64,000 bases of DNA from positions 8,432,001-8,496,000 of the forward strand of contig CP075496.1 in the NCBI GenBank assembly GCA_021613535.1. The letters are read 5' to 3'. A model generated the notes under the pieces. The model saw nothing but the letters and a program-made list of their open reading frames with translations, searched no databases and had not been told where the DNA came from. This document shows, one piece after another, positions 13,442 to 63,056 of this stretch; the first letter of the stretch is position 1; the number at the start of each line of letters is the position of its first letter. This DNA is from Adineta vaga. Taxonomy: Eukaryota; Animalia; Rotifera. A program made the position numbers and the translations under genes.

Positions 13442-14281
13442 ATGATTGCAATTATAATTAGTTTAATTCTTCTTGGAATCAGTTGCGTGATTTTATTCTT
13501 CACTGGTGGAATGTTTGTTCTTATTGATCCTTTACTTCGTCTAGCATATGCTCGTCATAAGAAAATTCGTCGTAGTGGACGTCCGCAACATATTTTTCTC
13601 ATTCGACATGGAGAATCACAAGCAAATGTCGATAAAAGTAAGTACTCAATTCTTCTCAATTTATTTACAGAAATTTCTTCGTTTATCATAGCGTTATGTT
13701 CTCGTATAGCTGATAGTCAAGTTGAATTAACTGAACGTGGTCATCAACAAGCTGTTGAAGCTGGTGAAAAACTTCATTCTATTATTGGAAAAGAATCGAT
13801 GTATGTTTATTTGAGTCCATATAAACGATCAAAACAAACATGGATGAATATTCGAAAAGCATTTTCACCCTTACAAATTATTACTGAACGTGAAGATACA
13901 CGTCTTCGTGAACAAGAATTCGGTAATATTGCTGATCTTCAAAAACGACCTCAAGAATTAGAAGATCAAAAACGATTAGGCGAATTTTACTACCGTTTTT
14001 CTTGTGGTGAAAGTGGTGCAGATGTATGTGATCGTGTTTCATTGTATCTTGATACATTATTTCGTGAAATGGACAATGGACATCATGATCCAACACAGAA
14101 TATTGTGATCGTTTCACATGGTTTATTTATGCGATTGTTTTTAATGAGATATTTCCGTTGGAATGTCGAGGATTTTGAAAATATCAAACAATTTGGTAAT
14201 TGTGAAATTTGTCAATTAACCAAAGTGAATGGCGTATATACACTTGATGGACATACAAGACCACCTACAAAATCGTCATAA
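13442..14281 (+). CDS. Histidine phosphatase / phosphoglycerate mutase-like protein (DET1/AT74 type) with an N-terminal membrane anchor
   Basis: Motifs IFLIRHGESQAN, LTERGHQQA, SPYKRSKQT, RLREQEFGN, FYYRFSCGESGADV and IVSHGL. There is a 54-nt in-frame GT-AG intron at 13638-13691. Confidence 0.9.
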   Translation: MIAIIISLILLGISCVILFFTGGMFVLIDPLLRLAYARHKKIRRSGRPQHIFLIRHGESQANVDKSKYSILLNLFTEISSFIIALCSRIADSQVELTERGHQQAVEAGEKLHSIIGKESMYVYLSPYKRSKQTWMNIRKAFSPLQIITEREDTRLREQEFGNIADLQKRPQELEDQKRLGEFYYRFSCGESGADVCDRVSLYLDTLFREMDNGHHDPTQNIVIVSHGLFMRLFLMRYFRWNVEDFENIKQFGNCEICQLTKVNGVYTLDGHTRPPTKSS

Positions 14282-20900: not shown

Positions 20901-23900
20901 TCGGTATTACAAACGATAGTTCTGGGTATTTATGCACTCATATCAGCATTACAAATCTTAATGATTATGATCGTGAGATTAGAATTATTTGCTTCTTTAG
21001 GATATATTAAAAATGTTTGTTTTCAATTGTCGTCCAGTAAGTATTAGAAATGAATGTTATATGTTTATCAAATTTGTGTTAGATTCAACTAAACGAGGTT
21101 ATTTATCGGATATAAATCCATCTCTTTCATTACGATTAATTGCACCATTGGAATGGTTCGGTTTATGGACAAAAAGTACATCGAATATAACTGTTGGAGA
21201 ATTGATCAGACCGTGTAAGTGTCGAAATGGTTGCTGATGTTGATAATTGTATTTTGAACTATTTTCAATAGATTTAATAGTAGTTTTAAGTATAGCTGTT
21301 CTACAATTAGTACGTCGTCATTGTCTTTCTTCTTTATCATTGAACGAATTATTAAATTGTACAAAAATTCAACTTTTTTCGAATATTAATATTCAATCAA
21401 TGAATGATTCATTATCGAATAATTTAAAATATCTTTGTAATTATGGTTCCTATCGATTTGGTCTTGAACTATCTTTATTTGCTTCATTGTGTTTAATTTT
21501 ATTGAGAATGGATGCTATTGCATTGCTTCATGCATTTATTGTACTAATTTTCATTCTTTTACCAAGACATCAAGTAAGACGATTTTGGAAATTATATCGA
21601 ATCTTAGCATCAATATCTACTATATGGTTGTATCTCAATGCACTTGGTAAATATGTTATATTGAAGTCGTTTAACGTACAGTATATTTCATTGTAGGTCT
21701 TCCATCAGTTCTATGTCTAAGACATGTATTCGATCATTTCGGATCTATTTGGTTTCCTGGTCGACTTTGGCCACAAATGAAAATTTATTTCCATCTTGCC
21801 AATTATTTTGAATGGCAACCTATAGCTGAATATTTATTTCCTGATTTCGTTTTACTAATTATTCTTACTATACAAGAAAAGAATTTTATATTAGAACAAC
21901 AACAAACTAATGTTATGGAAATGGGTAGCAATGATTATGATGAAGTTACTCAATCCTATTATCCTAATCTTTTACATGATTTTATTACTACTGCAACATT
22001 ATCATGGAGCAATCGTTTTGTTTCAGTTTTTTATTCGTATATCTATTGGTTCATTATTATTTATCTCTACATTCTAGCTATATATCGACAATCATTACTT
22101 TATTTATTGATATTACTCACTTGTTTTTTTCTTATTTGGCATGGACAAGCATTTTTACAACGTCGTTCATTTCATCAACAAAGATCATTCTTACACTTTC
22201 TTTCTCTTACATTTATCACACTGATAATTGCACATTTATTTATGCAACCATTAACATGTATTTTGATTCATTATACATCAATACGACATCGTTGTTTCTT
22301 AATCAATCTTTTCAATGTTCCTTGTTTCATTAAACGATTTCAACAATTATACGGTATAGATTGTCTTGAGAAAAGTTTCTGGACTCGAATACGAGGTATA
22401 ATTAGATCATTATTTATGTCAAACGAACAGATTGAATTATTTCTTATTTAGAAAAGCATCCTCAAAATCAATATTGGAAAGATTATTGTCAGAATAGTTA
22501 TAGAAATGAATCATTAGCAATCTTATATACTCAGCAAGCATTTTATTGTCATTCTGATTATAACCAATTAGTTTTCGATGCTTTTGGTTTTCTATTTGTT
22601 CTTCTATTTATTCGAATTCTTAGTTCATATTCATTCTTTTATGTTCGTTTGGAACTTCAAGTACAAGAAGAACTATCACAAATGGGTGCTTCATTGTTAT
22701 CACAATTAAATTGGCTTAAATTAGTTGAATATCGTCAAAGAACAATGAAGGAATTAGAAAGTATTAAAGCAAGAGTTACAAAACTTCGTCAAAGACGTGT
22801 AAGTATCAGTTACAGAGCACAGAACAAAGATGAAATGAATTTATATGATTTAGATAATAGAGAAACGTGAAATTGATATCGATGAACCAATCTATCATAA
22901 CTCAGCAATACTTTCTGGTGATTATTATATGTTTGATTATTTATTTGATACACAAGAAAGTTCAGATACAATTCTTCAGTCTATGATTCATACAACAGAA
23001 TCTGAACATTCGATTAGATTGTTCGATCTATTCGAAGGAAAAGTTCATAATCAAGTCAATGATCTTGAAATAGATTTGAAATCATTATCAATGAATAACA
23101 ATACATATGAATGGAATCATTTTCAGTGGGATAATAAGTTTATTGATAGTGAAACATTTCAACAACTTTCGAATAGAACAACAACAACATACAATGAATC
23201 GGAGAGACAATCATCAATAAACAATCCAGAAACATCGATTGGTATCGATCTTTCTTCCTTCATGACATTTTTTAGTTTAAAACAAAATTTCATTAAAATT
23301 CGACGAGTTTTGGTAAATAGTTTCTCGTTTGTCTCTTTTCCCTCTCGTATCTATGAATCTATTAAAAGAACACTATGAATTCTCGTCTTCTCATCTATTT
23401 GGGTCATCAAATTCGCACTCTTCTCATCACCCGTCAAGTCATTTCAGATGCTAAACTATGTCTCAAATATCCGCATGAATCGACTCGGTTAATTACTACT
23501 GCAGTTACAGCAGACATCAATGATTATACGAACCAAGCAAAACGACAAACGAACACAACAACAAATCTTTCAACGGCTAATTCAGAAGAAATCCTTTATC
23601 AAACACCATTATCCTCTTCGAAAAGTTCGAATACATTTAACCAAAAAAATTCTCTCGCTCGAAATAAAGAAAATAAATCTTCGTATGAAAATCATCTATT
23701 CCAAAGATCATCATTGATTACTCAAAAGTATTTTGAAAAACTAAAACTTACTCGTCTTCGCATGGAATCGAAAACTATATTGATTACTTTTATCATATCA
23801 AAATTTGATTATATGACTTATTCAATGTTAATTCTAAACTTCTTAACATCCGGAGGTGCTCTCATTTGGTTCCCTCTTTTAGCTTCTATTTATTTTTGGG

Positions 23901-26761
23901 CAATCCTTACATTTCCTTATCCGTCTCGACGATTTTGGTATGTTATTACACTTTCATCGATGATCATTTTATTTCTTCAGTAAATAAATTCTGTCTCTCT
24001 CATCTATTTCATCTCATCGAACTTCTTTAGATATAATATAACATTTATTTCATCACTATCGAATAAACTCTATATCCGTCATTCATTAATTGGTCACTTA
24101 CATATTCTTGCAAATGTGTTACTTCTAGGTACTCTTTCATTTCATCGAATTGTTCTTCATCAATTAGGTTTATGGGATGATTTCCATCCTCCAATCGAAG
24201 ATTCGTTAATCTATCAAACAAATTTCATACCATCTGATATAAAACTTGTTCGCAATCAAATTATTCGAGGAATTTATACTGTATTGAAAAATGGAACTAA
24301 ATATCGAAAGAAAATTGAAACAAGTAATTCAAATGCGGTCGATGAAGTAACTCTTCAAGCACCTTCGTTAACATCTTTACTTCCAAATGAAGTTGTTACT
24401 CGACTAAAATCCGAAGCACACTTATCGAAAACGCATTTTCATCAGAAAATTTCACTTTCAATTGGTACTTGTATCGAAAATTTCAAACGATTTATTCAAA
24501 CAATAAGACATTTCTATGATTTTGCCATTGGTAAGTAAGAAACTTCTGATAAAATATTTCTATCACATTTCTTATTTTTCTAGCATGTCCAATCGTACCA
24601 AAAGTTGATTACTATTCTTCAATATTTCTCTGTGATTTCATTGTTATCTTTTTAATCATTGCTGGACATCAACGATTTTCACATTCTGAATCCGTAGAAG
24701 ATAATATAATTTATCGTTATATTCAAGGTTCATCATCGCTAGATATCACACCTATTCTAATGTTATTAACACAATTTCTATTAATTATTGTCGATCGTAT
24801 AATTTATTTAAAGAAAAATGTTCATGCAAAATTTCTATTTCTATGTTTTCAATTTCTTGTTTTACACATCTGGCTTGTTATTGTCTATCCTATATGGTTT
24901 CAACGTGAAATGTCAAAAAATTGGGCAGCTATTTCGATTTATATTTTTAAATCAATCTATTTCATGTTATCTGCTTTGCAAATACGAAATGGGTAAGATA
25001 TTACTCGAATTTGTTTCTTATTCTAACGATTAGAGTCAATGGAAATACTTTTATTCAAGGTATCCAACAAGAATCTTAGGTAATTTTTTAACTACTCACT
25101 ATTCAATATTACGATTATTATGTTATAAACTTTATTGTACTATTCCATTTCTTTATGAAATGCGTGTTTTAATGGATTGGATGTTTATTCCAACATCATT
25201 ATCATTAACATATTATTTTATGATGGAAGAAATCGCTCGAAATGCATGGACACAAAAATGTTTGCAAATGATGGATGAAAGATCGCCAAGAAAACGAGCA
25301 TTAAATCGAAATCGTTGTGAACTATGTAAGCATTGAAAAGTGATTTCTCAATCAGAAACGGAAAAATACTGCAGAAAAAGGAATATTCTCGATTGTTTAG
25401 ATTGCATTGGTGGTTGGATTTTATTTGCTATAATATTTGTTATTTGGTTCCCATTGATATTTTTCAGGTAAGACTTGTATATTACAAGCAATTGAAATGT
25501 GAAATAATTTCTTTGTTATGGTTTCAGTATTAGTGCTCGTTTTGCTGATCCAATTCCAATTGATCGTTGTGAGATTAAAGTTCGTTTATCAACTTATAAA
25601 GAATTGTGAGTTATCTTGTTTTGTATTTTGAATAAATTGTACACTTTTAAATCATCAGATATCAATTAGTGACGACAAATGTTCGACAATCAACAGAATA
25701 CGAGTTTTCTAAGGATATTTATCCATTAATTATGAATTCATCATTTGCATCTGGTCCTCGAGATTTGACAGAATCTGATGTTGCTTGTATTAGTGCATTA
25801 GGTCATGTTGGTGCACAATGGACTATTTCGCTTTCAGCATTGAATCAATTGAAAATAGAATTAAAGCAATTTACTGATAATACTACATATAATATACCTC
25901 AAATATATTTTGATTATTCTTTTATACGTAAAGAACAAACGAGTGAACAAGATGATTTACCTTCAGGTTATATCGTTACTCTTTCCAGTACACATAATGT
26001 TTCTTTAACAAAAGAAAATGCTTTGACATTATTAACGATGCTCTCATTCGATAATCAAACACAAGTAACTAAACTATTTGATGCGATATTTCCTTCAAAT
26101 AAGTTTCTTTTAGGCAACAATTATTGTTTCACAACTAATGCCTAAATTTATTCATTTACTACCTGATATGATTGATATAAAATCTCCTACATATCCTCAA
26201 GATATTCAGTTAACATTACGACGAGAAAGGCAATTGTTATGGTGGGATATATCAGAAATATCTACAAATAATTGGAAAACGAAATGTTCTTTTGATACGC
26301 AAGCACTTAATTTTATTGTTATATCAGAACGATCAGGTGCTCAATCAAAAAGTTTTAATCTAATTGCAAAATTATTAATTGGTTAGTTTGAAAAAAGCTT
26401 TACAATTTCAAATTTTTATTATTCCAATTGCCATTATCTAGGTAGTAATGCAAAATTAACATTAATTGGCGTTTATGCTGGTCTTGTTTATGTTTTATGG
26501 TTAACATGTTTTCGTCAGACACTATTTTCAGATATTCAATCGATTATGTATCATGAATGGCCATTTGCTGATCGTATTCAACGATTATGTGAAGAAGTTT
26601 ATCTTGTACGAGAACTTGGAGAATTACAATTAGAAGAAGAATTATTTGCTCGATTACTTTTTCTTCATCGTTCACCAGAAACACTTATTCGATTCACTCG
26701 ATCAAAAGAAACAGCAAGAAAACAAGAACAATATCGAAATCAACATCTACATCAACATTAG
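17952..26761 (+). CDS. PIEZO: Piezo-type mechanosensitive ion channel, multi-exon
   Basis: Many transmembrane exons. Hallmark segments are LLTQFLLIIVDRIIYLKK, ALQIRNGYPTRILGNFLT, IPFLYEMRVLMDW and the C-terminal DRIQRLCEEVYLVRELGELQLEEELFARLLFLHRSPETLIRFTR. Confidence 0.95.
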
Positions 26762-35489: not shown

Positions 35490-37713
35490 ATGTTGACCTT
35501 TACCTTTGTTGTATTTTGCGTTTTAATTTCAAATATATGTTCTCAAAATCTTCCATTCCGATTTGATCATGCAATTTATCGATTGAGTCAATATCAGAAG
35601 TTATCTCCTGAAAATTTCATTCAGAATGTACAATACAATCCTACTGCAGAACAAATGTTACAATATATGAATATAAATAATAAAACTAGTGAATGTGAAC
35701 AAAACTTCGATACTATAATTCAAGCAGCCACAGAAGGTGAAATCTGGGCTATTAAAGTTCTTGATGCTTGGGGAAAACCTTTGCCATCAGGTGTATTACA
35801 AGGAAATACATTTTGGGTCGGTAGTTATGATGAATGTATACATCCAATGTATTGGCCTGCTAATAAAACATTTCTATCACAACCATTCAAGACTCAACAT
35901 TGTGAGCATGAAGGATTTATATTGTATAATAATTAAAATATGTTTCTAGGCACTATCATACCAAAAAACAAGACAAACTGATCCAAATGCGATGCCTGCC
36001 ATTGTTCTTGGAATTTGTGTTCCATCATCATGTGATCATCAAACTATTGTTTCTCTGCTTCATAAATATTTGAAGAAGACAAATGTCACAGCAGATGAAC
36101 TTTTATGTTCAAATGATCCTGCCAACGGACAACATGGACTAACTAATGGAGCAATCGCTACAATTGTTATTCTTTCACTATTAGGTCTACTAGTACTTAG
36201 TGGAACGATAGTTGATCTACCTTTTAGTATCCACAACAGATGCAATTGTTGATGCCACTACACATATCAATGGTTATAATCCTTCAAAAGAATTTGCTTC
36301 TCAAAAATCATTTCAATTTTGCCTAATTAAAAGTACGCATCCAATAGCTTTTCTCAGTGATTTCTCTGCCATACGATGTCTCCGTCGAATATTTACATTG
36401 AAACAAAAAAATACGGAAGAATCGTTTTTATTTATTAATGGTATTCGAGTTTTAGCATTATTTTGGGTTATTATTGGTCATTCGTTGGCTTTCGGTTTGG
36501 GCTATTCTAGTAACGTGCTGGACGTACTTGCTTGGACTCAAGATATTTCATTTCAATTGCTTATCAATGCTGTTCTCAGTGTTGATACATTTTTTGTCAT
36601 GAGTGGTTTTCTAACTGCTTTTCTATTCGTTCGACAAGTACAAAAAGAAGGTAAACTATCTGTACGTACGATGATACTCTACTATATTCATCGATATATT
36701 CGACTTACACCAACTTTTCTTTTAATGATTCTTGTAAGTATCAATTTAACACCATATTTTGGTCAAGGACCTATTTATCCTACACAACAAGGATTTGAAT
36801 CACAAGATTGTCGTACACGAGATTGGTGGACATCGATTCTTTATGTAGGCAATATTGTCAGAAAAGATGGTATGTGTTTAGGTATTGCATGGTATCTCCA
36901 TAATGATATGCAATTTCATTGGATTGCACCTTTATCTTTGATACCTTTTGCTCTTGGTCGAAAATTTGTATCGATTTTTATTGCAACAGTTTTTGTTTTC
37001 ATTGGTATTATTTCTATTCTAACTATACTAATTTATTATCCAGACATGCCACTCAATTCTTTGATTGCATTCAATCCTGTTGTAAGTTTTTCGTCATTCT
37101 TCATAGAAATTATATTTGAAATTTCCTCACTTTCTTTTATATGTAGCCTGGTCCTAACTTCTTTGACTATATTTATATAACACCATGGTGCCGTATATCG
37201 GCTTATGCTGTAGGTCTTTTAGCAGGATATTTCGTTGTTGATACCGATCGACATTACCGAATCAATAAATATGTCAAACTTTTTGGTACGATATTGATGA
37301 TTGTAGTCGGTTTAACTTGTCTATTTGCTACGTATCCGGATTATATTCTTCCATCTGGTCTAAATCGAACAATACTCGTTATATATCAGTCCTTTTCACG
37401 TACACTTTGGTCTATGGCTATAGGATGGCTTTTAATTTTGTGTAGTATAAATCAAGGTGGTATAGTCAATCGAATCCTTTCATGGCCGATCTGGGCTCCA
37501 ATGGCGCGTTTAAATTATTCATGTTATCTTGTACATGCAACGATAATCTTTATTAGTTTATATAATCAAAAATTACCTCAATATTACCAAGGACATTTAG
37601 TATTAAATAATTTTGTTTCACATATATTTTTCAGTTATGTAGCTGCTATTCTAGTAACAATCTTTTTTGAAACACCATTCTTTATTATTGAAAAGAAATT
37701 ATTGAAACGATAG
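35490..37713 (+). CDS. NRF-6-like O-acyltransferase (NRF domain plus Acyl_transf_3), copy 1
   Basis: Signal peptide, WAIKVLDAWGKPLPSGVLQGNTFWVGSYDEC, LGICVPSSC, NGIRVLALFWVIIGH, SVDTFFVMSG, HRYIRLTP, WYLHNDMQF and ARLNYSCYLVH. There is an apparent +1 frameshift near 36220. Confidence 0.9.
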
Positions 37714-38477
37714 GTTTCATCATTGTAATAAAGATAACCACATGCACATCTGACATGACATAGCGAATGTTTAACTAAAGATAAAACAAATGATATCATT
37801 ATCTATCCATACATTGATGATACTACGTCACCTCGACTTTATCATTATATTTCTTCAACAGTTACATTTAACGTACAATATATATGTCTCTTTTTGACTG
37901 ATTGGAAATGCGATTTTTAGCACTAGAAAATTCATTACTTGACAATCGAACAAAGAAGAAAAAGTGAATTTTTCTCTGATACTCTTCTATTTATATTTGC
38001 CGATACCTTCGATTTACAAAAATTTGTCATTGTGCAGTATTTGGAAATCTTCTACTATGTTTTTCAATTTGATATTCAATTGTCAGTTTAAAAGAACACA
38101 TTATCAAACTATTCCAGCATATACACGCTAGTTTTTCTATGAATTATAAATTCATTTTGACCATTTGTATCATAACAGCGATTTCATTCATTTTCATCGA
38201 TATTTTAGTCAAATAATCGAATAATAGTCTTATCTCAACTAACAACGATATATTCTTTGTTGTTTATTAGTCAAATTTATAGTTGAAATATACGATCTGG
38301 AATTATTTTGATGTTTTCAATTCATTTATCGATCACGTTCTATGTCGAAACTAGAGACTAAAGAATCTCTGCAGTTCATCATCACCCATTCCTAAAAAAA
38401 TGAATATCTCAATATTGATATCTTATTGTTCAGTATTTGAACATATGACAAAAGTTTGCATTTACGTATCACGATGA

Positions 38478-38564
38478 TCATTCACATGAGACCCGTTAAG
38501 TGACGAGCTTCTGAGTTTATATCTCTTACAAAAGTTCGTTACTAAGCGGGTCACTGATGAATGA
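38478..38564. ncRNA. Candidate pre-microRNA hairpin (miR-10/100/993 family-like)
   Basis: Arm 38490-38513 (gacccgttaagtgacgagcttctg) pairs with arm 38529-38552 (caaaagttcgttactaagcgggtc) at 22 of 24 positions on the + strand, including 3 G-U pairs. The loop is 15 nt and there is a basal stem tcattca/tgaatga. Confidence 0.6.
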
Positions 38565-39799
38565 ATATTTGAGAACACTTACAGTTATGAATCGTTTTCC
38601 TATTAATATCATCATTTACTCACTTGAATAAAACTACTTCTTCTTCGTCATCATCATCATCTTCTTCTTCTTTTTTTTTCTTTTGTCATTTTCTCATTCG
38701 ATCGATTGGTAATGAATCGTGCTTATGCATTGTCAATGTATGTTAGCAAGACTTATACTCGGCACACGTTCACATCAAATATTCACTTTGAATAATGGGC
38801 ATAAAAGAAAAGAGAAAGAGAGAGAGAGAGAGAGAAAGATCGTTTTTGAAGACGGAGAGAGTGAGATCCGATCTGTCTCGGGAATGGCCGACAGCTGATC
38901 ACTCTTATAGAGATGTATGTATGTGTCAAATAAAAATTAACTTTTATGTTAGTCCCTCTTTCTCTCTTTTTTCTTCCATCTTGAATCACTCAATCAAGCA
39001 ATCGAATGATAAGGTGTGGTGACGGCAACGACAATCACCATACATATAAATCGTTTCTATCAGACATGTGAATGCATCGACAATTAGAGGCAGTGAATGA
39101 ATGAGTGAATGAATGAATAAGTAAGAAAAAAAGAAGAAAGATCGAACGAACGAATGATGTGCAATCGACTATGGAAGAATGAACATTTACTGATGGAAAA
39201 GAGAAAGAAGAATATGTGTAGGCGCAGCTGGTACCTCATACTACAGTCAATCTTTTATGTCCCTAAATAGAATATGCATTGTCATTTGATTCTTTAAAAG
39301 AATCAAAGTACATATAGATGATAGTCTGTAAATGATGTTAAACTTTTTCATAAACTTATATGTTTCTTTCGAGTTAGGAAAACACTACGGGCTGTCTGAT
39401 ACCACTGTAAATCATGAAACTTGAATTATAAATTTTCTGTGAAATAGAAATACATTTCCTTTTAGTTATAATTCGTATATGACGTTTTCCTATAAGAGTG
39501 AATATAAATTTATTTCGATTAGTATGAATTGTTTCTGTTGAGATGGTAAAGCATTTTAAACTATCATTCAAACATATTTTCTCATATTTTTACTTTTCAA
39601 AATAACAAAATTTTAGAGAATACAAGATCTATTTCAAAAATAGTCTCTGCATGAATATAGACTATCAGGAGTGAAATTATGTATTCGATTGGTGGTATCT
39701 CGGAATAGAATTGTACATGGTCTAATTTTACAAATCATTTTGATTGATCCATCTAAAATCAAACGAGTAAACTAAACGTATAAATGTGAAAACAAAATA

Positions 39800-40352
39800 A
39801 CTCACGACAGTCTCGACAGATACGAAGCTTTTTTGCGATTTGAATCATTGTTGGTTGTGCTGGGTTGAATGAAATGAAAAGCGATAGCTAGTTTTTTACT
39901 ATGCCCACAAAATATTGACTCAACATCTCCATCAATCATCAAAATACGTGTGTTCGAACTTGAATCAAATTGATAACCATTTTGAATAAGTTCCTCTCGT
40001 ATTCGATCGAGCTCAGTATAAATTATCAATGCTTCAAAATGAGATCGATCCTGAACACCAAATTTTTAAATAGATATTTTTTCTTTTCGTCAAAATAAAT
40101 AAAAAAATCTTTTAAATTACATAAATTTTTCCATTTAATTCTGTCCACTAGATGGCTTGTTCTTTTATACTACCCTCATTTTTCAACTTTATATATATAT
40201 ATATATATGGCCTCTTCTAAGTGACCGGATGATTGATAAGTATTAGCAGGAAGAATTGCAGCTGGAAGCAGTTCTTGTTTACAATTCGTAAAATATCTTT
40301 AGATGAGAAGAATTTCGTTGGTTTCGGGCACCAGATAAGAGTGACACTACGG
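39800..40352 (-). pseudogene. Decayed PPR-type E/E+/DYW deaminase gene fragment
   Basis: The minus strand reads VSLLSGARNQRN, AILPANTYQSSGHLEEA, AI*WTELNGKIY, KFGVQDRSHFEALIIYTELDRIREELIQNGY, CGHSKKLAIAFHFI and, in a shifted frame, IQIAKKLRICRDC. It carries a stop, frameshifts and an HSE>HSK change. Confidence 0.8.
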
Positions 40353-41812
40353 GACAAAAACAAACAAATGAGTATAATCATCATTCTATTTCTTTTCCAT
40401 ATCGTCGAATCTTCTTATTTCATAAGATATTTTCATATTCTCAAAGAATTTTATTTCAAATAGCTGAAAAAAGTTATTCTTCGTAGAAAAATTCATCAAT
40501 TAAATTGAACATATTATACATCGGTAATGATGGAGGATGACAACATTCACATTCATTAATGATTGTTCCAGCTTCATTCCAAAGAAATATGTTCGACTAA
40601 AGCAGTGGACCTAAAAGAACATATTAAGACAATTATCAATGAATTAGAGCATTTCGAAAAAGATGTTGAAGAATTTTTTGGATTGTGCTACGACAAACAC
40701 TTTCAAGTTCAGTTCGACGTGCCGCATTAATTAAGAAAAGAAAAGCTACTCAATCCGGTTTAAATCTATCACTAATCATTTGATTGTACAAAGTAAACGC
40801 TTTTTCTGATTCATTATTCAGAATGATGAAGCCTATTTGCTTGAATTTTTAAAACGAATAGAATGAAAGAGAAAACCACTGAATACAGCTTATTTTTGAA
40901 CATCTAAAAATTCGAATATTTATTTTGATTGAATTGAGTAGAAATTTTATATTGAAGATATTCTTCGAAATAGAATTGCATTATTTCTTATTCGCAGATG
41001 ATTATTAATTTTCACGAAAAAGTAAATTTCTATAATAACATTTCATAGAGGAAAATCTGCTCTTATCTCATGAAATATAAGCTAATCATTCTTTTCATTT
41101 TACTCGGATACCAACTAGTTTTAAATAGATGTTTTTGAAAGAATCCATGTATGAATGATAATCTGTAAATGTTGTTCAGCTTTCTTATGAACTCATATGT
41201 TTCTTCACATGGAAATGTTCCTTCCAAACTAGAAAATAATATTGAAACTTGTTATATGAATAATAGATTTTACTACAACGTAGATGCTGTTCTAAAAGAT
41301 TATGATCAATACTTTGTAGGAAACGAAACATAGAAACATCATGAAACATTAAGTATAATACTTTACATTGCAGTTATTATTGTAATGCATACTATAACTG
41401 CTCATTGTATTATGAATACGTGATAGTTTGTATAATATTTTCATGATTTCTGAATTATTGGTTCATTGCTTGTCTGAATTTGATGAGTTTAATATTATAT
41501 CACTCAATCTCACCAAACGATCTGATAAACAGCTTTTGAAATAAAAAGAAATTAGATAACGACTCAACACATTTAACCTTGTACACAAATATAATTAACA
41601 AAAAATGGTTTTCTTCTCTACCGTTAAAATATCTCTCTCTATCATCTTTCTATTTATCATAAAAGACAAACTTCACAGTCGCACGTACATATATATCACT
41701 ATAAACAAACATACTAGATAAGACTACGCACTAAAAGTGTGTGACCTCGATCGCCACTGCATGTATATATATAGTCAACAATTCATTCGTAAACTTCTAT
41801 ACAATAGAAAAG

Positions 41813-44074
41813 ATGATCATGTATCGTTTTCTTTTCTTCGTTCTTCTAATAAACACGTTATTAGCTGATCATCCATGGGTATTACCACGAAGTTCTAGTT
41901 TTCATCATTCATTAGAATTATTTCATGCACGTACAAAACATTCTTCATCATCGATTTCGTTAACATTATCATCTTTTCTACCATTTGTTATTAATGGATC
42001 AATTTGTCGTGATGATCTTTTACTATTAGTCGATGGACTCGAAAATCAAGAAAAATGGGCATTAAAAATAATTGATTCATGGGGTACAAAGGTTCCACCT
42101 GGTATTCTTGAAGGATCACATCTTTGGTATGGTTCATATGATGAATGTCTTCATCCACTCTATTCACCAACCAATCAAACTTATGTTCAACAACCATATT
42201 CAACAAAATATTGTACGATTTCAAGTTCAAACTCTACTGATGGTGATGATATGAATTTTTTTCAAAAACCATCGTTAATTGTCGGGATTTGTTTACCAGA
42301 ATCTTGTCGTTCATATGATTTTCAATCGAAGTAAGTTCTTTTTTTTGTACGAACAAAAAACAACAATAGTATAATGTGATAATCATTTATTTTCAGATTT
42401 TTGAAACTTCATTGCAGATCAGAAGAAAGACATTTTTCTATCGGTGCAATATTAACATTAAGTTTAATTATCTTACTTAGTTTATTTGTATGTTTCGCTG
42501 AATTTATTCCTCGTCTGAAGGAATATTCTGTAACATCATCATTGAAAAAAATCTTTTCATTAAATCATCATCATTCAACATATTCATTTTTAAATGGAAT
42601 TCGTGTACTTTCCTTACTATGGGTTATTTTTGGTCATACATATGTTTTTCAATTGACTATTGCCAATAATCCTATTCATATTATGGATAATCTATATAAT
42701 TCATGGCTAGCTCAATTGATAATAGGTGCTGTATATGGTGTAGATACCTTCTTTTTCATTAGTGGATTTCTAGCAGTAGCAGTTTTTCTCAATACATTCA
42801 ATGGTCAAAGTAATTTCTTTTTTTCTTGTTAAATCCAATAGATTCATTTCTTTTGTTTTAGATGTCTTTCATATTCGACATTTATTTCTTTATTATTTCC
42901 ATCGATATTGTCGTTTAATTCCAACTTTAGTATTTGTATTACTAGTTAGTATGTATCTATCTCCATGGATGGGAACAGGACCAATCTATCCAGCATCGAA
43001 CGGCTTTGAAGTATCAGGTTGTTATCGATCATGGTGGAAAACCGTATTATTTATTAATAATATGGCATCATTCGAAGAAGCATGTTTACCTGTCACTTGG
43101 TAAGTAGATGATTAGTTCATTATATATAGTTCTATGCATAATATGATTAGTTAATTTTGTCTTATGGAAATCTAATACTTTTAGTTTATATCGTAATGTT
43201 AATATCTATTTTGTAATGATTAAAATACAAACAATATTTCGAACTAGTATTATTTTTGATTTTCTTTCTTTCTTTCTTTCTTTCAAGGTACATTGCTAAT
43301 GATTTTCAATTTCATCTATTAGCTCCTTTACTTCTTATACCATTTATCTTGAATCGTCGTCGATGGACTTATGCTTTATTAATTCTTATCCTATTGATAA
43401 ATATAATTACTACAATTAGTTTAGTTAGTACTCATCCAGGTTTCGAGGGCGGATTTATTACAATGGATCAAGCACCGTTAGATTTTGCTAACAAAATCTA
43501 TATCACGCCCTGGTGCCGAATTGGTGCTTTTATTATTGGCATGATAACCAAACTAATTCTCGAACAATACCATCCTATTTTATCATCGATTAAAGTAATT
43601 CTATTCACCATAATTTCTATTCTTCTCGCAATCATCTGTATATATTTACCATTTTATTCGAATTATTTTCCTAAATTTATTCTTATTTTACATCAATCAT
43701 TATCTCATCAATGTTGGTCCATTGCTATCGGTTGGTTAATCTTTGCTTGTTCTACTAATCATGGTAGATTGATAAATAAAATTCTTTCATGGCCATTTTG
43801 GATGATCGTTGCTCGTCTGAGTTATTCAGCGTATTTAATTCATGCAACAATTATTCTTGTTCATGTTTACAATCAATTATCAACAATTCATTATCAAACA
43901 AGTGTTATTTTCAATAATTTCGTATCATTAACAATATTGTCATTGTTTGCATCAATCTTTATTGTTGTTCTCGTGGAAATGCCATGTAGTTTAGTTGAAA
44001 AACGAATGCGAAAATATTGTAAAGATAGAAAACAACTCTTGATCAATCAACGATCCTATGGAACAATCAGTTAG
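41813..44074 (+). CDS. NRF-6-like O-acyltransferase, copy 2
   Basis: Four exons give WALKIIDSWG..GILEGSHLWYGSYDEC, GICLPESC, NGIRVLSLLWVIFGH, GVDTFFFISG, HRYCRLIP, WYIANDFQF and ARLSYSAYLIH. Confidence 0.9.
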
Positions 44075-52620: not shown

Positions 52621-55548
52621 ATGAATGTATGTAATATAATACTATTTAAAAAACTTATTCTAACATATGATTTACTTTACTAGATGCAGATCAATCAACA
52701 AACAAATGCGCTTGGTAGATTATCACTTACTTCAGGAAGAGAGTCTAGTACAATTTCAAAGACAAATCAAGGAGGAGCGACATCAAGACAGCAAGAAAAC
52801 ATGAAAAACATGAATGACGTCATTTACACCAATCATTTTCCTTGTCGTTTCGCTAGTGACATTACTTTCTATCAATATGATGCTACTGTTGAACAATATC
52901 ATAACAAAAAAAGCAAATTTATCTATATTACTGGTCGTGAAAGACGTCGTCAGGTCGTTACTAATATGTTCACAGACAAAATAATTCATCCAACAGCTGT
53001 CTGTTGGTATGATGAAGGAAGTTGTATTTATAGTACGACGATTCTCAGCGACACTTTTCCAATGATTTATGAAAAAGAAGATCGAGGATATCGTTATCGA
53101 CTAACAATCAATAGTCAATCAGCTACAAGTAGTACAAATGATTTCGATCAATCATCAATTCGAATTATAGAAACGTTGATCAAACAAGCATTAAAAGAAC
53201 AATTCAAATGTATTGGTTCAGTCTTCTACCGATGGGATGAAGAATGTAAACCAGATGGACCTTATGATCTTCTCAATGGATTTCGACAAGCTCTATGTCT
53301 TACGGAGTCAGATGTTACTTTGAATGTAGATACAACAACGACTCGATTCTATCCACATATGGAACTTTTACCATTTATTTGGGAAAGATTATTGAAAACG
53401 GAAAACCGTCCATTTGCCGGACGATTGTCCGATCAACAGTATCGTCAAATTAGTAATAATCTGAAAGATGTCGAAGTTACAACTATGCAATCGGAAAACG
53501 AAAAAACATATGTTCTAACTGGTGATTTTTCGCAACAACTTCCAGCACAAATTCCTGTTAGAGAACAGAATCTTTTAAACTATTACAAGGATCTTGGGTT
53601 TCCACTTCGCTATCCCAATCTTTACTGTTTGAAGGCATATAAACAAAATCATCAAGAAGAAATAGTTGATTTACCAATTGAACTTTGTCAACTTGGAGAA
53701 TGGCAGCAAGTCAAAGAAGATGAAAATACGAAACCTGTTCCTGCACCACCAGTCAACGCACGTTTCCATTCAATTATGAGAGTCGTACAAAACTGCAATT
53801 TTGATGATAGTGCATTATTTCGAGAAATTCAATTGGAAGTTGGTTGCGCCGAAATGATGGACGTGTCTTATGATACTTTAAGAAGCGTCAAATTAATCTC
53901 AGTCGACAACGCGGTTTTACTAATCCAGTTTCAATTGATAATATGGGATTTATCTATCTGACGGATCAACGTTACGATACTCGACAAACACAAAATAAAT
54001 TCTTGGAACAGTTTTTATGAAGTAGGAGCTATTTTTTATTATGAAGATTGTGTAATTCTTCTTCGTCGTATTCATTTATAGGCTGCTCAAAAACAACGAA
54101 TGGGTTTACCAGAAAATTGCGATGAAAACGAAGTTTTTGCTGACAAAAACATAGAAAGCAATCTTCGACGTCACTTGTCAAAACTTAAAGAAGGTCAATG
54201 TCAATTTGTTCTTTGCCTTGAAAACTGTCAAAATCCACAAATACATGAAGTTTTCAAAAAAATTGCTTGCAACGAATTAGGTAAGCATTGTTTTTCTGAG
54301 AAAATTCTTCTTATCATCTTCTTTCCACTTAGGTCTTGTTACTCAGTGTGCGAATTTTTCAAAAATTCAACGAGCAAGAAATCTAAGAAGCTATTGTGAT
54401 AATATTTTGCTATCAGTAAATGCTAAACTATCTGGTGAAAATAAACAAGTTGCTGATCTACGTACGCAAATCAAAACAATGTATGTAGGAGCTGACGTTC
54501 TTCATTCAAAGAATAACTACTCAGGTGAAATGCCGTCAATAGCAGCCGTTGTTGCTAGTATGAATTCTGAATGTACGTTGACAAATCAACGTGTGTCTCG
54601 ACAATGGCCTATGGATGGAAAACAATCAATAGAGGCAATTTTATTGTTGAAAGATATGATTGTAGATCTTTTATCGGCATTCAGAGACTGTAATGATGGT
54701 ACTCTACCCGAACGTATTGTTTTCTATCGTGATGGTGTCGATGATGGACAACTGGAACGTGTGAAAAATGAAGAAGTGATTGCTTTACGAGAAGCATTTA
54801 GAGGTAAAGAGTAATTTTTTTCTACTAGTTTACAGTAATTTGGATATTTGACTAATCTTGATTGAGAGAATCTGATCTGTTGAGTTGTAATTTGTCGATA
54901 GTTTTGTTAATGTATAATATTAAATGAGAGATATAGTTCTTTCTCTTTGAAGTCAACAGAAAATCACCGAGTATCATTACATTTCTAGAAATAATTTGAT
55001 TACTTTTGTTTTTTTTCTAGCCGTTTATCCACCAAATTCTTCATCTCCTTCTCTAACATTTATGGTAGTTAAGAAACGTCATCATACTCGTCTCTTTCGA
55101 CGAATAACATCAACAGAAGTTGCTAATGTTGAATCAGGTGTCGTAGTTGATAGTTGCATTGTTAATCCAAACTATCCCAACTTTTTCCTCAATTCACATG
55201 AACCCTGTTTGGGAACAAACAAAATTGGCAATTATATTGTTTTGGTTGACGACACTAATTGTTCCTTGAATGATCTTGAAGAACTCACTTACTCTCTTGT
55301 CATGTGGATCAACGTATCAGTAGTCGATCAAGCGAATCAATTCCAAGTGTTGTACACTTAGCTGATGCAGCTGCAAGTAAGGCAAGACAACTATTTGATC
55401 ATAGACAAAGGTAAGCTATCAAAGTTTTTCTTTAATCTTAGCTACTATCAACATATCTGTTCTATTTACTTTTAGAGCACCAAATGCACCTCGTGCAGAA
55501 ATTCATTATGCTCACGAAGATATGCAGAATGCACCAAATATGTTTTAA
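52621..55548 (+). CDS. Divergent Argonaute (N-L1-PAZ-L2-MID-PIWI), about 825 aa after correcting three single-base frameshifts
   Basis: Exons at about 52621-52626, 52684-54021, 54082-54280, 54333-54803, 55021-55410 and 55476-55548. Motifs include YTNHF..YQYD, GFRQAL..LNVD, LRYPNL..LPIELC, LGLVTQC, NAKLSGEN, MYVGADVLH, PSIAAVVAS, IVFYRDGVDDGQ, VVKKRHHTRLF, NVESGVVVDS and a C-terminal MF*. Confidence 0.92.
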
Positions 55549-55784: not shown

Positions 55785-57685
55785 TTAGATTTTCTGTTGA
55801 TCATCAGAAACAATCTCTTGAAGTTGACGCATCACTTTGGATGTAGCTGCTTTTGCTGGTAAATCAACATAAATTTCACGTCGGAATCCATTTCTTTCCT
55901 GACCAATTTTGATTCCTTCTACTTGGTGACGAATTTGTTCTCCCGTGATAGGTAATTCATAGAGTTCGTTAACGAGATCGAATATATCTTCAGGTTTTAT
56001 TACTTCACTGGTATTTGCCGTATTCTTTTGTTCTTCTGCTGTTCTTTTAAATAGGTCCATTTCTTTTCTATAATCATCTTTTATCTTCTGAAGATTATCA
56101 ATCATTTGCGTATTTTCAGCACCAGCACCTTGTTTCATTCGTTCTTCTCGAATGAAATATTCGAGATAATCTATATAATCATCGTTGGTTGATAATAACG
56201 CATTTACATGAAGAAATCGTACCAATTTTTTGTAAACATTCTGAATTTTTCTCTCTTCCTTTCGTAAATCGCTGATACGTTTATCAATATCATCCATAGT
56301 CATCGTTCTCTTTGATCTAGTCGTAACTGATTTAACATTTGTACGATTTGTTTTGTATTCATATGTAATATGTTTATGTTGTAACCAATGACAATCACAA
56401 ACAAGACAAAAGCCTAAAATGAAACAATCGAATTCATACGAAAATAAAAATTAATTATCATTAGTTTACCTTCATTTGGTTCCATTGCAGTACAATCCTG
56501 TAGTTTTTGATCATATAATGTTTCTTGTTTTACACCATTCAGATAACATTCATCATGACATATACTCAAATATTCTAATTTCTTCTCACCATTGATATCA
56601 ACAACTCTACAACATCTATCACCAACACAGACCGTTCGTGGATGTTTAAGATACACAATTTGTGCATCATTCTGAGGTATACCTTCAGATAAACCTCGAG
56701 GATTAGTAAGCACTTTTCGTTTATGATCTTGGGCAAGTTGAATGTTTTCTTCGATTAATTTAGCGGTTTCCGCCATTGGACGTGGAAATTTTCGAATTAA
56801 TTGTTCAGCTTCATTCAATGACACTGTATTACTAACTGCATGAAGTGAACATGCATTAATACTTTTCATAAGTCGTGCATATTCTTTGACTGAATGATCC
56901 CAACTTTTCGAATAACTTTGTGTTTCTTCAACATTGATATGTATCCCATTTTTACATAAAGCTAAATAACGAAATGCTTCATTATCGAATAGAAAAGAAT
57001 TTTCTCTCGAAAATGGAATAATAACGTTTTGTTCAATACGATGCTTATTTAGAAGACCTTCAATTAGTTGTTTTGAGGGACCAGGTGTGAAGAATGTTGC
57101 GCGAGCACTAGTAAAAACAAAATTCAAATTAGCAGCAGCTTCTATATGTAAATGTCGAAGAAGTTCGTTGACTGAAAATCGAAAAAGAATGTTCAGACGA
57201 TGTTCACCAGGTTTAAGCATAATAAAAATTGCATTTAAATGTTCATATTGAGATATGAAATTTAAGATTTCTTGAAAGTTTTTTTCATCTTGTTCAATAC
57301 CTCGAGTATCACCAATACCAGGTGTATCAATAAATCGCAAATTTCGATTACCGATCGGAAAAAGAAAACTTCGACATTGTTGTGTAGCAGATTGACCTTC
57401 AATACTGAATTTTTCATGTTCATCTTCGCGACCAATGACAATCAATCTTTCGTCAAATGTTTCATGCTCAGTATGAGAGAAGGCTGTTGGAATAACAACT
57501 TGCATATCATTATTGACTGCTTCTTCTAAAGTATCATAAGTAATATAATTAGCAAAAGCATTAATAAATGTCGATTTTCCGACTCCAGTAGGACCAAGTA
57601 ATAATATATTGATTTCACGCTCTCGTGGGCAATGTCGATTTGCTCGAAGAGAAGAACTATTTCGTCTCGAATAATTTGTAGCCAT
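55785..57685 (-). CDS. Septin/AIG1-like P-loop GTPase with a Cys/His-rich domain and helical C-terminus
   Basis: G1 LLGPTGVGKSTFIN, G2 SATQ, G3 IDTPG and G4-like FTSAR. Then RTVC..CC, CHDECYL and, after the intron at about 56469-56413, FCLVCDCHWLQHKHITYEY followed by a coiled-coil tail. Confidence 0.85.
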
Positions 57686-58532: not shown

Positions 58533-61500
58533 TTAAAAACGATTTGAATCATTGCAAATAACTTTTTCAGTATCTATTATTGAACGTTGTTGATATTGTT
58601 TGATAGCATTCCATTGTTCTTTGATCATAGAATTATTTTGAACTAATTCGAGTACACTATAAATATCAGATAATGACTTATTAGTTTCATTAGACTTAGT
58701 GTTGTAGAATTGTTCATATTGAGTTTTTAATTTATCTAATTCTTCAGCTAATTGTTGATTAAGACAAGTTTGATTTTTTCTATGGTAAATAATGTTTTCT
58801 TCTTGAATCATCCGAACGAAACCTGATAAAAATGGATCATCACCCTGTTCAACTTGAGTTTCTTTTAAAAAGTGTGCAAATTTTGTAGCTGCTTGACATA
58901 ATAACATTGCTTGTTGCTTTAAATCATCGATCGTTTCATATGTAATATTAGCACAATAATTATATTCGAGTCGATATGTCACTAAGACATGTTGTTTCGA
59001 TATACACTAAAAACGTACAAATTAAATCTTTCTTTCATATAGATTGTATTTCAAATCTAACCTGAGTTGTCAAAGAATGTAGATGATCTGTCAGTACAAA
59101 CAAAGAGCCAAACTTTGTTAATGGACGTTCATTTAAATAGCAAATCAACATTGATTGTTCAATTGATATAGCTTTTAATTCAATGGCTGAATGGATGGAA
59201 TGTAAAGAAATATTTCGAATAATATTTCGTATGGCTTCCAATATTGGTAGAATTAATAAATTGATTTGTATTTGAGCTTCTTGTATAGATTGCCATTCTT
59301 TATTTTTACGATATGGAAGTAAGTTTTGATCAAGATATTGTTCAAATCGTTTGGATTGTTGAACAGATTGTGTCCAACTTTTTTCGAATTCTTCTCTTTG
59401 AATTCCTTCAAAAGTTAACGAGTTTTGTAGAGAAACTAAATATCGAAATGATTCACTATCAAAACAGAATGTATTGTTTCTATCGAATGGTATATTTTTA
59501 ATTGGAAATGAATTAAAAAAGGATAATAATGCTGGTCGAGTGTCACCTGGTGCAAAAAATGTTGATCGTGCATTCGTAAAACAGAACATGAAATGTTGAC
59601 GAATATTTTCACCAAAAAATCGAAATAATTGAGTAAAACATGAGTATAAAAATGGATTCAATTGTTGAACATTTGGCTTAAATAAAAAACAGATACCATT
59701 TAAATATGGAAAATGATGAAGAAATGAAAAGATCATTTTCATATTGCATTCATCTTGATCAACTCCACGTGTGTCTCCAAAACCAGGTGTATCAATAATT
59801 CGTAACTTTTTCTTATGAGATATGTTAAAGATATAACAACGACATTGTTGAGTTACGGATTGACCAGAATGACTGTGATCTTCATTGGCATCGACATCAC
59901 CGAATTTAATAAGTTTTTCATCAAAGTTATCATTAATAGTCATTAGAAATGAAACAGGAATAATCACAAAAGGGTCGTTTGATTCAGCTTCTGCAAGCGT
60001 TTGATAGCGAAGATAGTTTGCAAAAGCATTGATAAATGTTGATTTTCCGACTCCAGACTCTCCAAGTAAAAGTATTGAGATATATTCTTCTTCGGGTACC
60101 GGTTGTACTTTCTTTTTCGATACTTTAACAGGCTCTGTTGACCGTGATAGATATCGATCAATTGTCTGTTCCTTTGATGAGAGGATAAATATCTTCTTTA
60201 AACACAAATTAGTATATGTGAAATCTGCATAAATTAAAGTTAGTTGTGGATTTTCCTGTCGTTCTTTTACTAATTGAGATTGCTTTTCATTCCATTTTGT
60301 TTTTGATCTTTGTTGGAGCTGATCGGTTGAACAAAAGATTCGTTTATTTATATCACCTTTGAAAAGTATCTCTTTAACCAGCTCATCCGTAGATTTTTCA
60401 TCAATTCCCAATTCAGTCATTTCATAGTATTCGAATCCATCATTTTGCAGTTGTCTAATTTGTTTTCCTTTCATTCTCAATTCATCTATAATTGCACTAA
60501 ATCGACTTGTAGAATAATCAATTGTTTTTTGATTATCTGAGTTTACTATTTCATCAATTGATTTCATAACATCTCTGTTTTCTCGAATTTCTACGAATAA
60601 TTCACCTATTTGACGGATAATGCTATGACAGAATTGTTTTATTTCTTCAAAACCTTTTTGAACACTGACTAGTCGATCGTTAAGTTTGCCTTGTAATAAT
60701 TCAGGTAATTCATGCTTTAGATAGAACTGCAATATTTTTAATTCTGCTGAATGTTGAAGTAGATAATACTCCAAAGGTTCCATTTCAGATTCTTCGAATA
60801 TAGTATACGCTATATCAGTTGAATTTGGTTCTGATTTGCGCGGTTGAAAAGGAGTGAGTGTATATTTCATTCGACGATGTTCTGTCGAATCTCTTGTGTG
60901 AATTACTCTGTATAGTGTATCGTAAAAATTGTTCATTGATGGTAAAGTAGGAATATTTGAATGGATTGTGATGAAAACGAGTTTATCTAACAGATCCAAT
61001 TCACTTTGCTTCAGTTCAATAAAACATTCATGATTTGCAAGATTGTGACGTATTCGTTCTAGTAAAGTATCAATTTCAACAGCTTGAGCGGGTGGTAATT
61101 GTAAAACGAGAACAGCATGAACACCGTATACAATTTTAGTTATAATATGTGTTGTGGAATTCATGATATTGCCTTTTCCATTCGATTCTATATATTTTAA
61201 AAGATTCTTCTTGTACGATTCGGATCGACTTTCATGATAAATGTATAGAAAGCGAGTATATTGATCAATAATTTGTGAATAATTGATAATAAAAGCAATA
61301 CCAGTTGGTTGAGTCAAGTTTAACATAATACTGAGACGCATAGATGCATCAATTCCGACCATTTTCAGTAGGTTTTGACTATCAATCGTACGTCCATGAT
61401 ATAATTTACATACTATGGGACCATTTAAGTCTTTCGATTCTCTTTTATCTTCACAATGTAATTTTCCTAACATTCTATCATGGTACCTACTGTACATGGA

Positions 61501-61623
61501 TCCAATGTCACCTGATTGATCGATAGCAATGCATTCAATATCGCATTGTTTTGTTTTCTTTTGGTTTAAATTCCTATCTTGATTGGAAAAAAATGTCTTT
61601 AGTGAAGTCAATAGTTTAGCCAT
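58533..61623 (-). CDS. Stonustoxin/verrucotoxin-type MACPF/CDC-like domain fused to a septin/AIG1-like GTPase
   Basis: The N-terminus AIDQSGDIGSMYSRYHD..VGIDASMRLSIMLNL..TGIAFIINY..THIITKIVYGVHAVLVL resembles the stonustoxin N-terminal motifs (ALGRP.LGxLYD, ASLKxS, THVVTxIxYG). The C-terminal half has LLGESGVGKSTFINAFANY, SVTQ, IDTPGFGDTRG and FTNAR. Intron at 59061-59007. Confidence 0.78.
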
Positions 61624-62280
61624 AGTTGATCTAGTAAATAGAATTTTAATACTGATGGTTGATAATTTTACTCAACGAAAGAAAATATTGTGAATTTTGA
61701 GTATATGTCTTACTCGGTAAATATCAAAACTTTTATTTTGATCGATGTTCTTGACTTCGTAAAGTAATATAAATCTTAGACGTTTTTTTTCATTCTCTAT
61801 AAACACTTGCGAATGAGAAGCAGTAAGAAAAAGTAATAGAAAAGAAAAAGAATTTTTTTCCAACATAATAAGACACGTGCATTTGATTGTAAAGAAATAA
61901 AATAAATAAAAGATTTCAATTTCTATAAAGTTTTTCATGAAATATATATAAAAAAATACGTTTTGGCTATTTTTGTCATAGGATTTTTTCTTTGTTTCTA
62001 AATATGGATTTATTTCGTTTAACGAGAAATTTCTTGAAAACTGATAATCGGTAGGTCGATTGAATTTGACTTGTCATGGATTATTGATAAATAAGCTAAA
62101 TATGTTAAATACATGTTAAAAGAATATTGTCTGAGGTGATAAGATATCTTTTCGATTTTTTTGTTTGAAATAACAAGCAAACATGTGACTTGTCGACTTC
62201 TCACGATAATATTTTTTGTTTTTTTAATCTATAAAGTAACGATATTTAAAACAATAGTCATTGTCGTTACAATATAAATC

Positions 62281-63056
62281 ATGGATGCATTTTCCGTTCT
62301 TCAACAACCACGATTATCAATTGATCGCGTTATTAATTTAGAATTTCAAGAGCTTGTAGAATGTGGTGTGTGTCATGGTATCATATTAGATCCTGTTGGT
62401 TGTTACAATTGTGATAGAGCAGTATGTTCAGCTTGTATTCATCAATTGAATGCCCATAGAGAAGAATCTATTTGTCCATATGGATGTACAACATATACTG
62501 AACGTTCTTGTCCAAAAGCAATTGCTCATATTCTCTCTAGTTTAAATATAATCTGTCAATATAAATCAAATGGATGTGATGCAATTCTTTCATACAATAA
62601 TATTATAAATCATGAGAAAGACTGTGATTATCAGTTGTGGAGTTGCATTGGATGTCAACAATTGATAACGAAAAAGAATTTTCAAGAACATAACAATCAA
62701 TGTCCATTGATATCATTAATATGTGATGAATGTTCGAGTTCATTTCAAAGAAAAGATACTAATTCACATACATTAATCGATTGTTTACATATTCAACTAC
62801 AAAACAAATATCTGAAATAGACAAATTGAAAACAAAAGAATCTGAACAAGAAAGAAAAATTGATTTAATGGAACAAAGATTGCAAAGATATGAAACGTTT
62901 TGGTTAGGATTTGTCAAGACAACAAAACAAATTAGGTATATTATGAATACATTGGAAGATAATCTCAATATCACTTCATTTCTAGAGGTATGCTGGATAA
63001 CTCCAACTAAATCAATCAAATACACTAATAAAATGCCAAAACAAGATCATATTTAA
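62281..63056 (+). CDS. TRAF-like RING and TRAF-type zinc finger protein with a coiled coil, no MATH domain seen
   Basis: RING CGVC..DPVGCYNC..CSAC..CPYGC; fingers CQYKSNGC..HEKDC, CIGC..HNNQC and CDEC..H..DC. The coiled coil KQISEIDKLKTKESEQERKIDLMEQRLQ lies in a shifted frame after the A-run at 62801-62804. Confidence 0.8.

Follow-up and report, generated by a model that had tools for sequence, protein, structure and literature searches.

Can a perforin-type module and a GTPase work within one chain, and does such a protein make pores? This question is raised by a gene of the rotifer Adineta vaga that lies in an AT-rich 64-kb stretch of contig CP075496.1, referred to here as the window. A preliminary description had read its product as a stonustoxin (SNTX)-like MACPF/CDC protein with a GTPase in the position of the PRYSPRY domain, possibly perforating membranes under the control of GTP. 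Intracellular immune GTPases (GBP, IRG and GIMAP) and pore formers (gasdermins and MPEG1) are known as separate proteins. If the reading is true, a family of fungi, algae and animals that unites the two activities in a single chain would be a candidate system of cell-autonomous killing, and would offer a testable answer to what the ancestors of stonustoxin did before venom. Bdelloids are faced with fungal pathogens, and their effectors are poorly known.

Gene structure and relationship to stonustoxin

The gene occupies 61623..58533 on the minus strand (as do all of its features given below) and has two exons, and its product is I4U23_019712 of Adineta vaga (1011 aa; P0001 in the protein database used here). 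Exon 1 (59062..61623) encodes residues 1-854, identical in sequence to those of P0001, and exon 2 (58533..59006), recognised by its match to the C-terminus of P0001, encodes residues 855-1011 (157 aa of helical tail) and the stop codon. The comparison with P0001 places a phase 0 intron of 55 nt with GT..AG borders between them (59007..59061), and exactly these 55 nt are absent from one contig of run X3, the one run of four in which this was seen and whose RNA status is a guess. The possibility of an assembly artefact or chance fusion was ruled out, because 76 of 80 long homologs show the same fusion and a single contig from a DNA run covers 60311-61956.

A protein of about 1010 aa lacking a signal peptide had been described, and this holds: the translation is 1011 aa long, and neither a signal peptide nor a transmembrane helix was found by the Kyte-Doolittle method in 19-residue windows, the best mean being 1.44 for the whole protein and -0.25 for windows beginning at residues 1-22. 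The protein is likely cytosolic. All motifs cited in the preliminary description were located in the translation, including IGSMYSRYHD (residues 40-49), DASMRLSIMLNL (92-103), THIITKIVYGVHAVLVL (158-174), RIFCSTD (427-433) and LIYADFT (463-469); the G1 (GESGVGKS) and G3 (DTPG) motifs are found at residues 521-528 and 611-614, respectively.

The homology of residues 28-486 to the MACPF/CDC, FAT and thioredoxin domains of stonustoxin is settled. A single-sequence Pfam scan of the 1011-aa protein gave no SNTX match at E<=1, and SNTX was also absent from the matches of single-sequence phmmer against PDB and from the best 60 of the 69 matches of a 13-sequence full-length profile. Weak matches to haemagglutinin coiled coils in the phmmer search (E>=0.12) were dismissed as helical noise. 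An N-terminal profile built from 11 sequences found SNTX-beta (4wvm_B) at E=1.2e-5 and SNTX-alpha at E=0.0048, and with 123 sequences these values became 6.2e-17 and 1.3e-12, the alignment spanning MACPF and FAT. Two relatives, P0002 and P0077, exceed the Pfam cut-off of PF24674, unlike the window protein, and the three best-ranked clusters in the ESM Atlas were all SNTX (scores 0.91-0.92).

AlphaFold2 (AF2) gave a model with a pLDDT of 90.1 and a pTM of 0.59 when supplied with the 123-row alignment, and a pLDDT of 32 from the single sequence. Foldseek ranked 4wvm as the top match to the model (E=2.4e-11), which together with the profiles bears out the stonustoxin-like N-terminus that had been proposed. 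With VIA-align, model residues 28-486 could be superposed on SNTX residues 4-500 (Z 16.4, rmsd 4.3 Å, 375 residues); 4wvm scored Z 15.6 in a wide structural search of 48,161 chains, and the CDC-like structure 8g33 reached Z 12.8 against the model. Going by the domain boundaries in PMC8704401, the aligned part takes in the MACPF/CDC and FAT domains completely and the thioredoxin domain for the most part.

The SNTX-type MACPF/CDC domain (aa 28-262, 60838..61542) is delimited by profile, AF2 model and structural alignment. Its predicted secondary structure includes a bent four-stranded sheet, with strands at about 71-76, 123-136, 159-175 and 217-222, and the two helix clusters TMH1 and TMH2; the sheet, the clusters and the profile match to SNTX are thus all present, as the preliminary description had expected. 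The helical region and short alpha/beta segment that it had placed after the MACPF part correspond to a FAT-like helical bundle (aa 275-395, 60439..60801), defined by the same three kinds of evidence, and a thioredoxin-like alpha/beta domain (aa 396-485, 60169..60438), recognised by structural alignment up to SNTX residue 500. For the thioredoxin-like segment no SNTX match was obtained with the 123-sequence profile, whose alignment ends near profile position 360. At the extreme N-terminus AF2 weakly indicates an amphipathic helix (aa 2-14, 61582..61620; pLDDT about 60), whose hydrophobic moment of 0.51 lies at the 89th percentile within the protein and is similar in many close homologs; these features weakly suggest a possible membrane contact.

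Stonustoxin alpha/beta (PDB 4wvm; Pfam PF24674, PF21109 and PF18078) is therefore the best match of the window protein by both sequence profile and fold, with an identical order of MACPF/CDC, FAT and thioredoxin-like domains at 13% identity. The two differ in that stonustoxin ends in PRYSPRY, whereas residues 514-1011 of the window protein form a G domain and a helical tail. Neither the venom use nor the alpha/beta heterodimer of stonustoxin is indicated for the window protein, which is known here as a gene and a predicted fold.

The G domain and the range of the fusion

The two halves are joined by a disordered linker (aa 487-508, 60100..60165; pLDDT<50), the length of which ranges from 2 to 522 aa among 167 homologs (median 31). 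This variation and the pTM of 0.59 of the model fit a tethering of the halves, not a rigid lock. As had been claimed, a full G domain stands in the PRYSPRY position: residues 514-775 (59299..60084), identified by Pfam, fold and conservation as a TRAFAC G domain of the AIG1/Toc34/septin-like kind, are nearest in fold to Toc34 (Z 15.1) and then GIMAP7 (Z 14.1), and Pfam AIG1 is barely at its cut-off (27.4 vs 27). Residues 509-781 come closest in fold to the GIMAP/AIG1, Toc34/33 and septin GTPases (Z 13-15), which share G1, G2 and G3; all three motifs are intact and conserved in the window protein (GESGVGKS, Thr at T591 and DTPG). The window protein differs from these GTPases by the fused perforin-type module and by G4, where T/NKxD, the motif of guanine specificity, is replaced by TNAR. 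The fourth place is Arg in 287 of the 291 G domains of this GTPase family. Since G4 lacks the Asp across the family, the nucleotide may not be GTP.

Position 654, which judging by topology may be that of the conserved-box arginine of GIMAP and the dimer arginine of Toc34, is occupied by Gln in the window protein, as it is in 27 of its 42 close relatives, and by Arg in 53 of 56 G domains of the intact-type set defined below; the profile alignment of the G domain to GIMAP/Toc34 stops short of this position. The tail (aa 776-1011, 58533..59298), outlined by AF2 and conservation, consists of long helices and a beta insert that retains three of four family-conserved Cys/His residues. The AF2 model places the last helix of the tail against the G domain, and the structural alignment with GIMAP7 covers residues 513-996. 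Column conservation is highest in the G domain (0.65, against about 0.5 elsewhere).

A tandem G-domain paralog lies downstream on the same minus strand (55785..57685), identified by Pfam and by 41% identity over 305 aa. It has a G domain, a Cys-rich insert and a helical tail, keeps the Arg and lacks the MACPF part. The gene is spliced, with a 56-nt intron near 56413-56469 that is skipped by contigs from three of the four runs, and contigs from two probable RNA runs start within it at 57664.

The N-terminal profile found 415 representatives at E<=0.001, 201 of them at E<=1e-30; the named members are bdelloids and many of the others are unnamed metagenome proteins. Among the best 150 of the 415, a G domain is present in 92 proteins, including 76 of the 80 with at least 700 aa, and never lies N-terminal to the MACPF part (0 of 92). 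Within the same 150, there are 29 proteins shorter than 700 aa that have the MACPF and thioredoxin-like parts and no G domain; these may be first exons clipped by gene callers, and a split form is therefore not claimed.

Several variants of this architecture were observed. A scan of 49 proteins for N-terminal fusions gave one caspase, one ADP-ribosyltransferase and two ADP-ribosylhydrolase domains; P0143, P0021, P0061 and P0128 from that scan, together with P0315, thus have a caspase, an ADP-ribosyltransferase, an ADP-ribosylhydrolase or a kinase domain ahead of the MACPF part. The Rotaria proteins P0183 and P0185 carry MACPF..G..MACPF..G repeats, which represent tandem fusions or, alternatively, gene models that were merged. 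At least four additional GTPase-family genes of A. vaga (P0087, P0228, P0235 and P0269) have the SNTX part whole, partial or absent. Beetle, millipede and mite proteins (P0279-P0290) combine the same G domain and DUF8206 with long N-terminal parts that gave no Pfam SNTX match.

When the beetle G domain was used as query, at least 58 proteins with PF24674 (MACPF_SNTX) were present among the 120 of 562 matches listed, belonging to Glomeromycota, Mortierellales, Chara braunii, Panagrolaimus, Rotaria and Didymodactylos, and all six that were rescanned were over the cut-off. These proteins, from Rhizophagus, Glomus, Gigaspora, Mortierella and the above non-fungal taxa, are arranged as MACPF_SNTX, in some cases DUF7656, G domain and DUF8206, which is the domain order of the window protein with a GTPase of one family, and they show about 45% identity to the G domain of the beetle query. 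The fusion is thus widespread rather than one-off, is readable from Pfam labels and forms a large family in bdelloids. In the ESM Atlas, mostly chordate clusters with SNTX helical/thioredoxin domains, fn3 and G-domain families were found at ranks 5, 6 and 8, with scores of 0.81-0.84 that make them leads and with taxa based on few members. Compared by cluster annotation, they share the pairing of SNTX-like and AIG1/septin-type G domains and are set apart by fn3, and it is probable that the pairing is present in fish. Judging from this range, the architecture with the GTPase may predate the one with PRYSPRY.

A full-text literature search gave no description of the fusion, although the original SNTX paper, outside that search, may note it. 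It is not described in the accessible parts of PMC12373286, PMC3417536 and PMC10566576, and GTPase, MACPF and perforin are all absent from the main text of PMC11258130 as far as it was available. An uncharacterised AIG1-like GTPase family common to nematodes and Rhizophagus has been reported, with MACPF unmentioned in the available portion of the paper (PMC6872716). Within the literature searched, proteins with MACPF_SNTX and a GTPase are so far known as database annotations. If the family is the same, the present analysis assigns a fold to part of what that paper calls a 'previously uncharacterized' eukaryotic GTPase family (PMC6872716).

The pore hairpins in the bdelloid clade

As reference for the helix clusters we used an intact-type set made up of 57 of the 58 PF24674-bearing proteins, P0035 being excluded as a member of the divergent set. 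A G-domain tree was built from 96 chosen rows, 44 of them of the window protein's kind, and these 44 form one side of a branch with support of 100/99; in this tree, midpoint-rooted and without fish, their clade adjoins an intact-type protein of Didymodactylos. A horizontal transfer from fungi is not indicated by this tree.

TMH1 of the window protein (aa 84-116, 61276..61374), examined by profile alignment, conservation and alternation, has lost the Gly-Gly turn and contains a Pro, with the alternation of its first strand retained. TMH2 (aa 177-213, 60985..61095), delimited by profile alignment and hairpin statistics, has 37 aa, no Gly and a helical amphipathy. Ser222 (60958..60960) aligns with G208/G209 of SNTX in both the 11- and the 123-sequence profile alignments. 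The beta-4 glycine (G208/G209) is reported to be present in all cytolysins and to be necessary for the SNTX pre-pore (PMC8704401), and the glycine hinge after beta-4 is important for oligomerisation of CDCs (PMC6479001).

These features are for the most part shared by the clade. With 119 of 123 clade rows compared to 53 of 57 intact-type rows, the median length of TMH2 is 38 vs 43 aa, its Gly count 1 vs 3 and its helical moment 2.26 vs 1.56; the intact-type set was picked by Pfam SNTX match, which favours SNTX-like hairpins, and is rich in Rhizophagus near-copies, so that the p-values of this comparison are inflated. Among the 119 clade rows, 87 have Ser and 22 have Gly as the hinge residue, which is Gly in 43 of the 53 intact-type rows; because glycine is kept in 22 of the former and missing in 10 of the latter, this residue is not a clean marker. 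Column-averaged profiles (123 clade rows vs 52 intact-type rows, five Chara rows having been removed) show TMH2 alternation peaks of at most 1.24 in the clade vs about 2.0 and 1.9 for the two strands in the intact type, and a first-strand peak of TMH1 of 2.34 vs 3.26. The window protein itself has a TMH2 alternation score of 1.94, similar to the intact-type median of 1.91. Its span from the Gly to the hinge is 55 residues, six shorter than the 61 of SNTX-beta. G167 is invariant in all 123 clade rows, so the MACPF domain is still conserved and therefore appears to be retained for some role.

The relatives from fungi, Chara and other taxa retain Gly-rich alternating hairpins and, in most cases, Gly at the hinge as well as the Arg, while the window clade does not, and the TMH2 of the window protein is likewise shorter and more helical than that of stonustoxin, with Ser at G208/G209. 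Perforation of membranes by the window protein is thus a part of the preliminary description that is unsupported so far, given the short and helical TMH2 of its clade and mostly Ser at the hinge. Judged from sequence, the pore claim would be better placed on the intact relatives than on the window gene, which is of value because it allows eroded members to be compared with naturally intact ones. A functional analogy is provided by astrotactin-2, in which, as in the window clade, the MACPF fold is kept while hairpin alternation is lost; its architecture is unrelated, and the erosion in the window clade is milder (few residues vs more than 30).

Possible functions and genomic surroundings

Because the pore-making parts look eroded, a scaffold or regulator is likelier than a lone pore. 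With a little under even confidence, we propose that the window protein serves in rotifer defence as a membrane-coating scaffold or regulatory subunit, switched by nucleotide and probably non-lytic. Binding of nucleotide would lead to dimerisation of the G domains and concentrate the protein at a target membrane, the role that PRYSPRY has in stonustoxin. The flexibly tethered MACPF halves could then align edge to edge into arcs, which would anchor, nucleate or damp assemblies and form no full beta-barrel by themselves, given the erosion of TMH2 and of the beta-4 glycine. Switched pore formation proper would be left to the relatives with intact hairpins, namely those of fungi, Chara and nematodes and other genes of rotifers.

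The main alternative, a self-sufficient, GTP-gated intracellular pore, appears rather unlikely to us for the window protein; here assembly of the G domains on a membrane would free the two helix clusters to form a beta-barrel, with the death of an infected cell or of an invader as the outcome. It agrees with the complete predicted MACPF/CDC fold including both clusters, with a TMH1 of roughly SNTX length and partial alternation, with the span of 55 vs 61 residues, with the protein's own TMH2 score at the intact-type median and with intact G1-G3. It is difficult to reconcile with the clade-wide loss of alternation and glycines in TMH2, the Pro within TMH1 and the Ser at a site where the SNTX pre-pore is reported to need Gly (PMC8704401); for astrotactin-2, lost alternation has been used as an argument against pore formation (PMC4892435). 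A membrane-remodelling or trafficking GTPase of dynamin/GIMAP-like type, whose MACPF half would be no more than a stiff arm for polymerisation or spacing, unrelated to pores or immunity, is a less probable reading still. It would account for the G domain being the most conserved part, for the existence of related G domains without MACPF (the tandem neighbour and the beetle proteins among them) and for the helical-stalk tail predicted to fold back onto the G domain, whereas hundreds of diverged paralogs, a patchy range and fusions to caspase, ART and ARH domains suit conflict systems over housekeeping.

GIMAPs dimerise with GTP, and the silent GIMAP2 is activated by GIMAP7 (PMC9111091). By analogy, the window protein could be a catalytically quiet subunit switched by the neighbouring G-only protein, the pair being the working unit, which could be combined with the scaffold reading; we regard this as improbable. 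The tandem arrangement of both genes, with 847 bp between them, speaks for such a pair, as does the Gln at 654 in most close relatives where most intact-type proteins and the neighbour have Arg. However, the putative correspondence of 654 to the GIMAP/Toc34 arginine is judged from topology, beyond the end of the profile alignment, and as a paralog the neighbour is remote and sits on a long branch.

The immune part of the scaffold proposal is suggested by what the sequences reveal of expansion, patchy range and caspase/ADP-ribosyl-domain fusions. Fish SNTX genes outside venom have been discussed as defence genes (PMC12107551), but the expansion of AIG1-like genes in a nematode has been discussed as stress-related, not immune (PMC6872716), which counts against an immune reading. 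A broader scenario, conceivable but doubtful at present, is that of an old class of intracellular MACPF-FAT-thioredoxin-GTPase perforins with a built-in switch, present in early-diverging fungi, a charophyte, nematodes, rotifers and fish. In that case stonustoxin would have branched off late, as a venom protein in which PRYSPRY took over from the GTPase, and the hundreds of copies in bdelloids would include pore-competent members together with eroded ones that nucleate, aim or restrain them.

The other genes recognised in the window are of various kinds. A multi-exon Argonaute/Piwi gene (ArgoN, PAZ and Piwi; 52684-55361, plus strand) is convergent with the G-only gene, and a Cys-rich gene with Sina/TRAF-type zinc fingers (62281-63056, plus strand) lies divergently about 660 bp upstream of the SNTX-GTPase gene. 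Farther away are a rhodopsin-type GPCR (9302-10273, minus strand), a histidine phosphatase (13442-14281), a Piezo channel gene of several exons (18704-26145, plus strand) and NRF/acyltransferase-3 exons (36212-44074, plus strand) that probably represent at least two genes.
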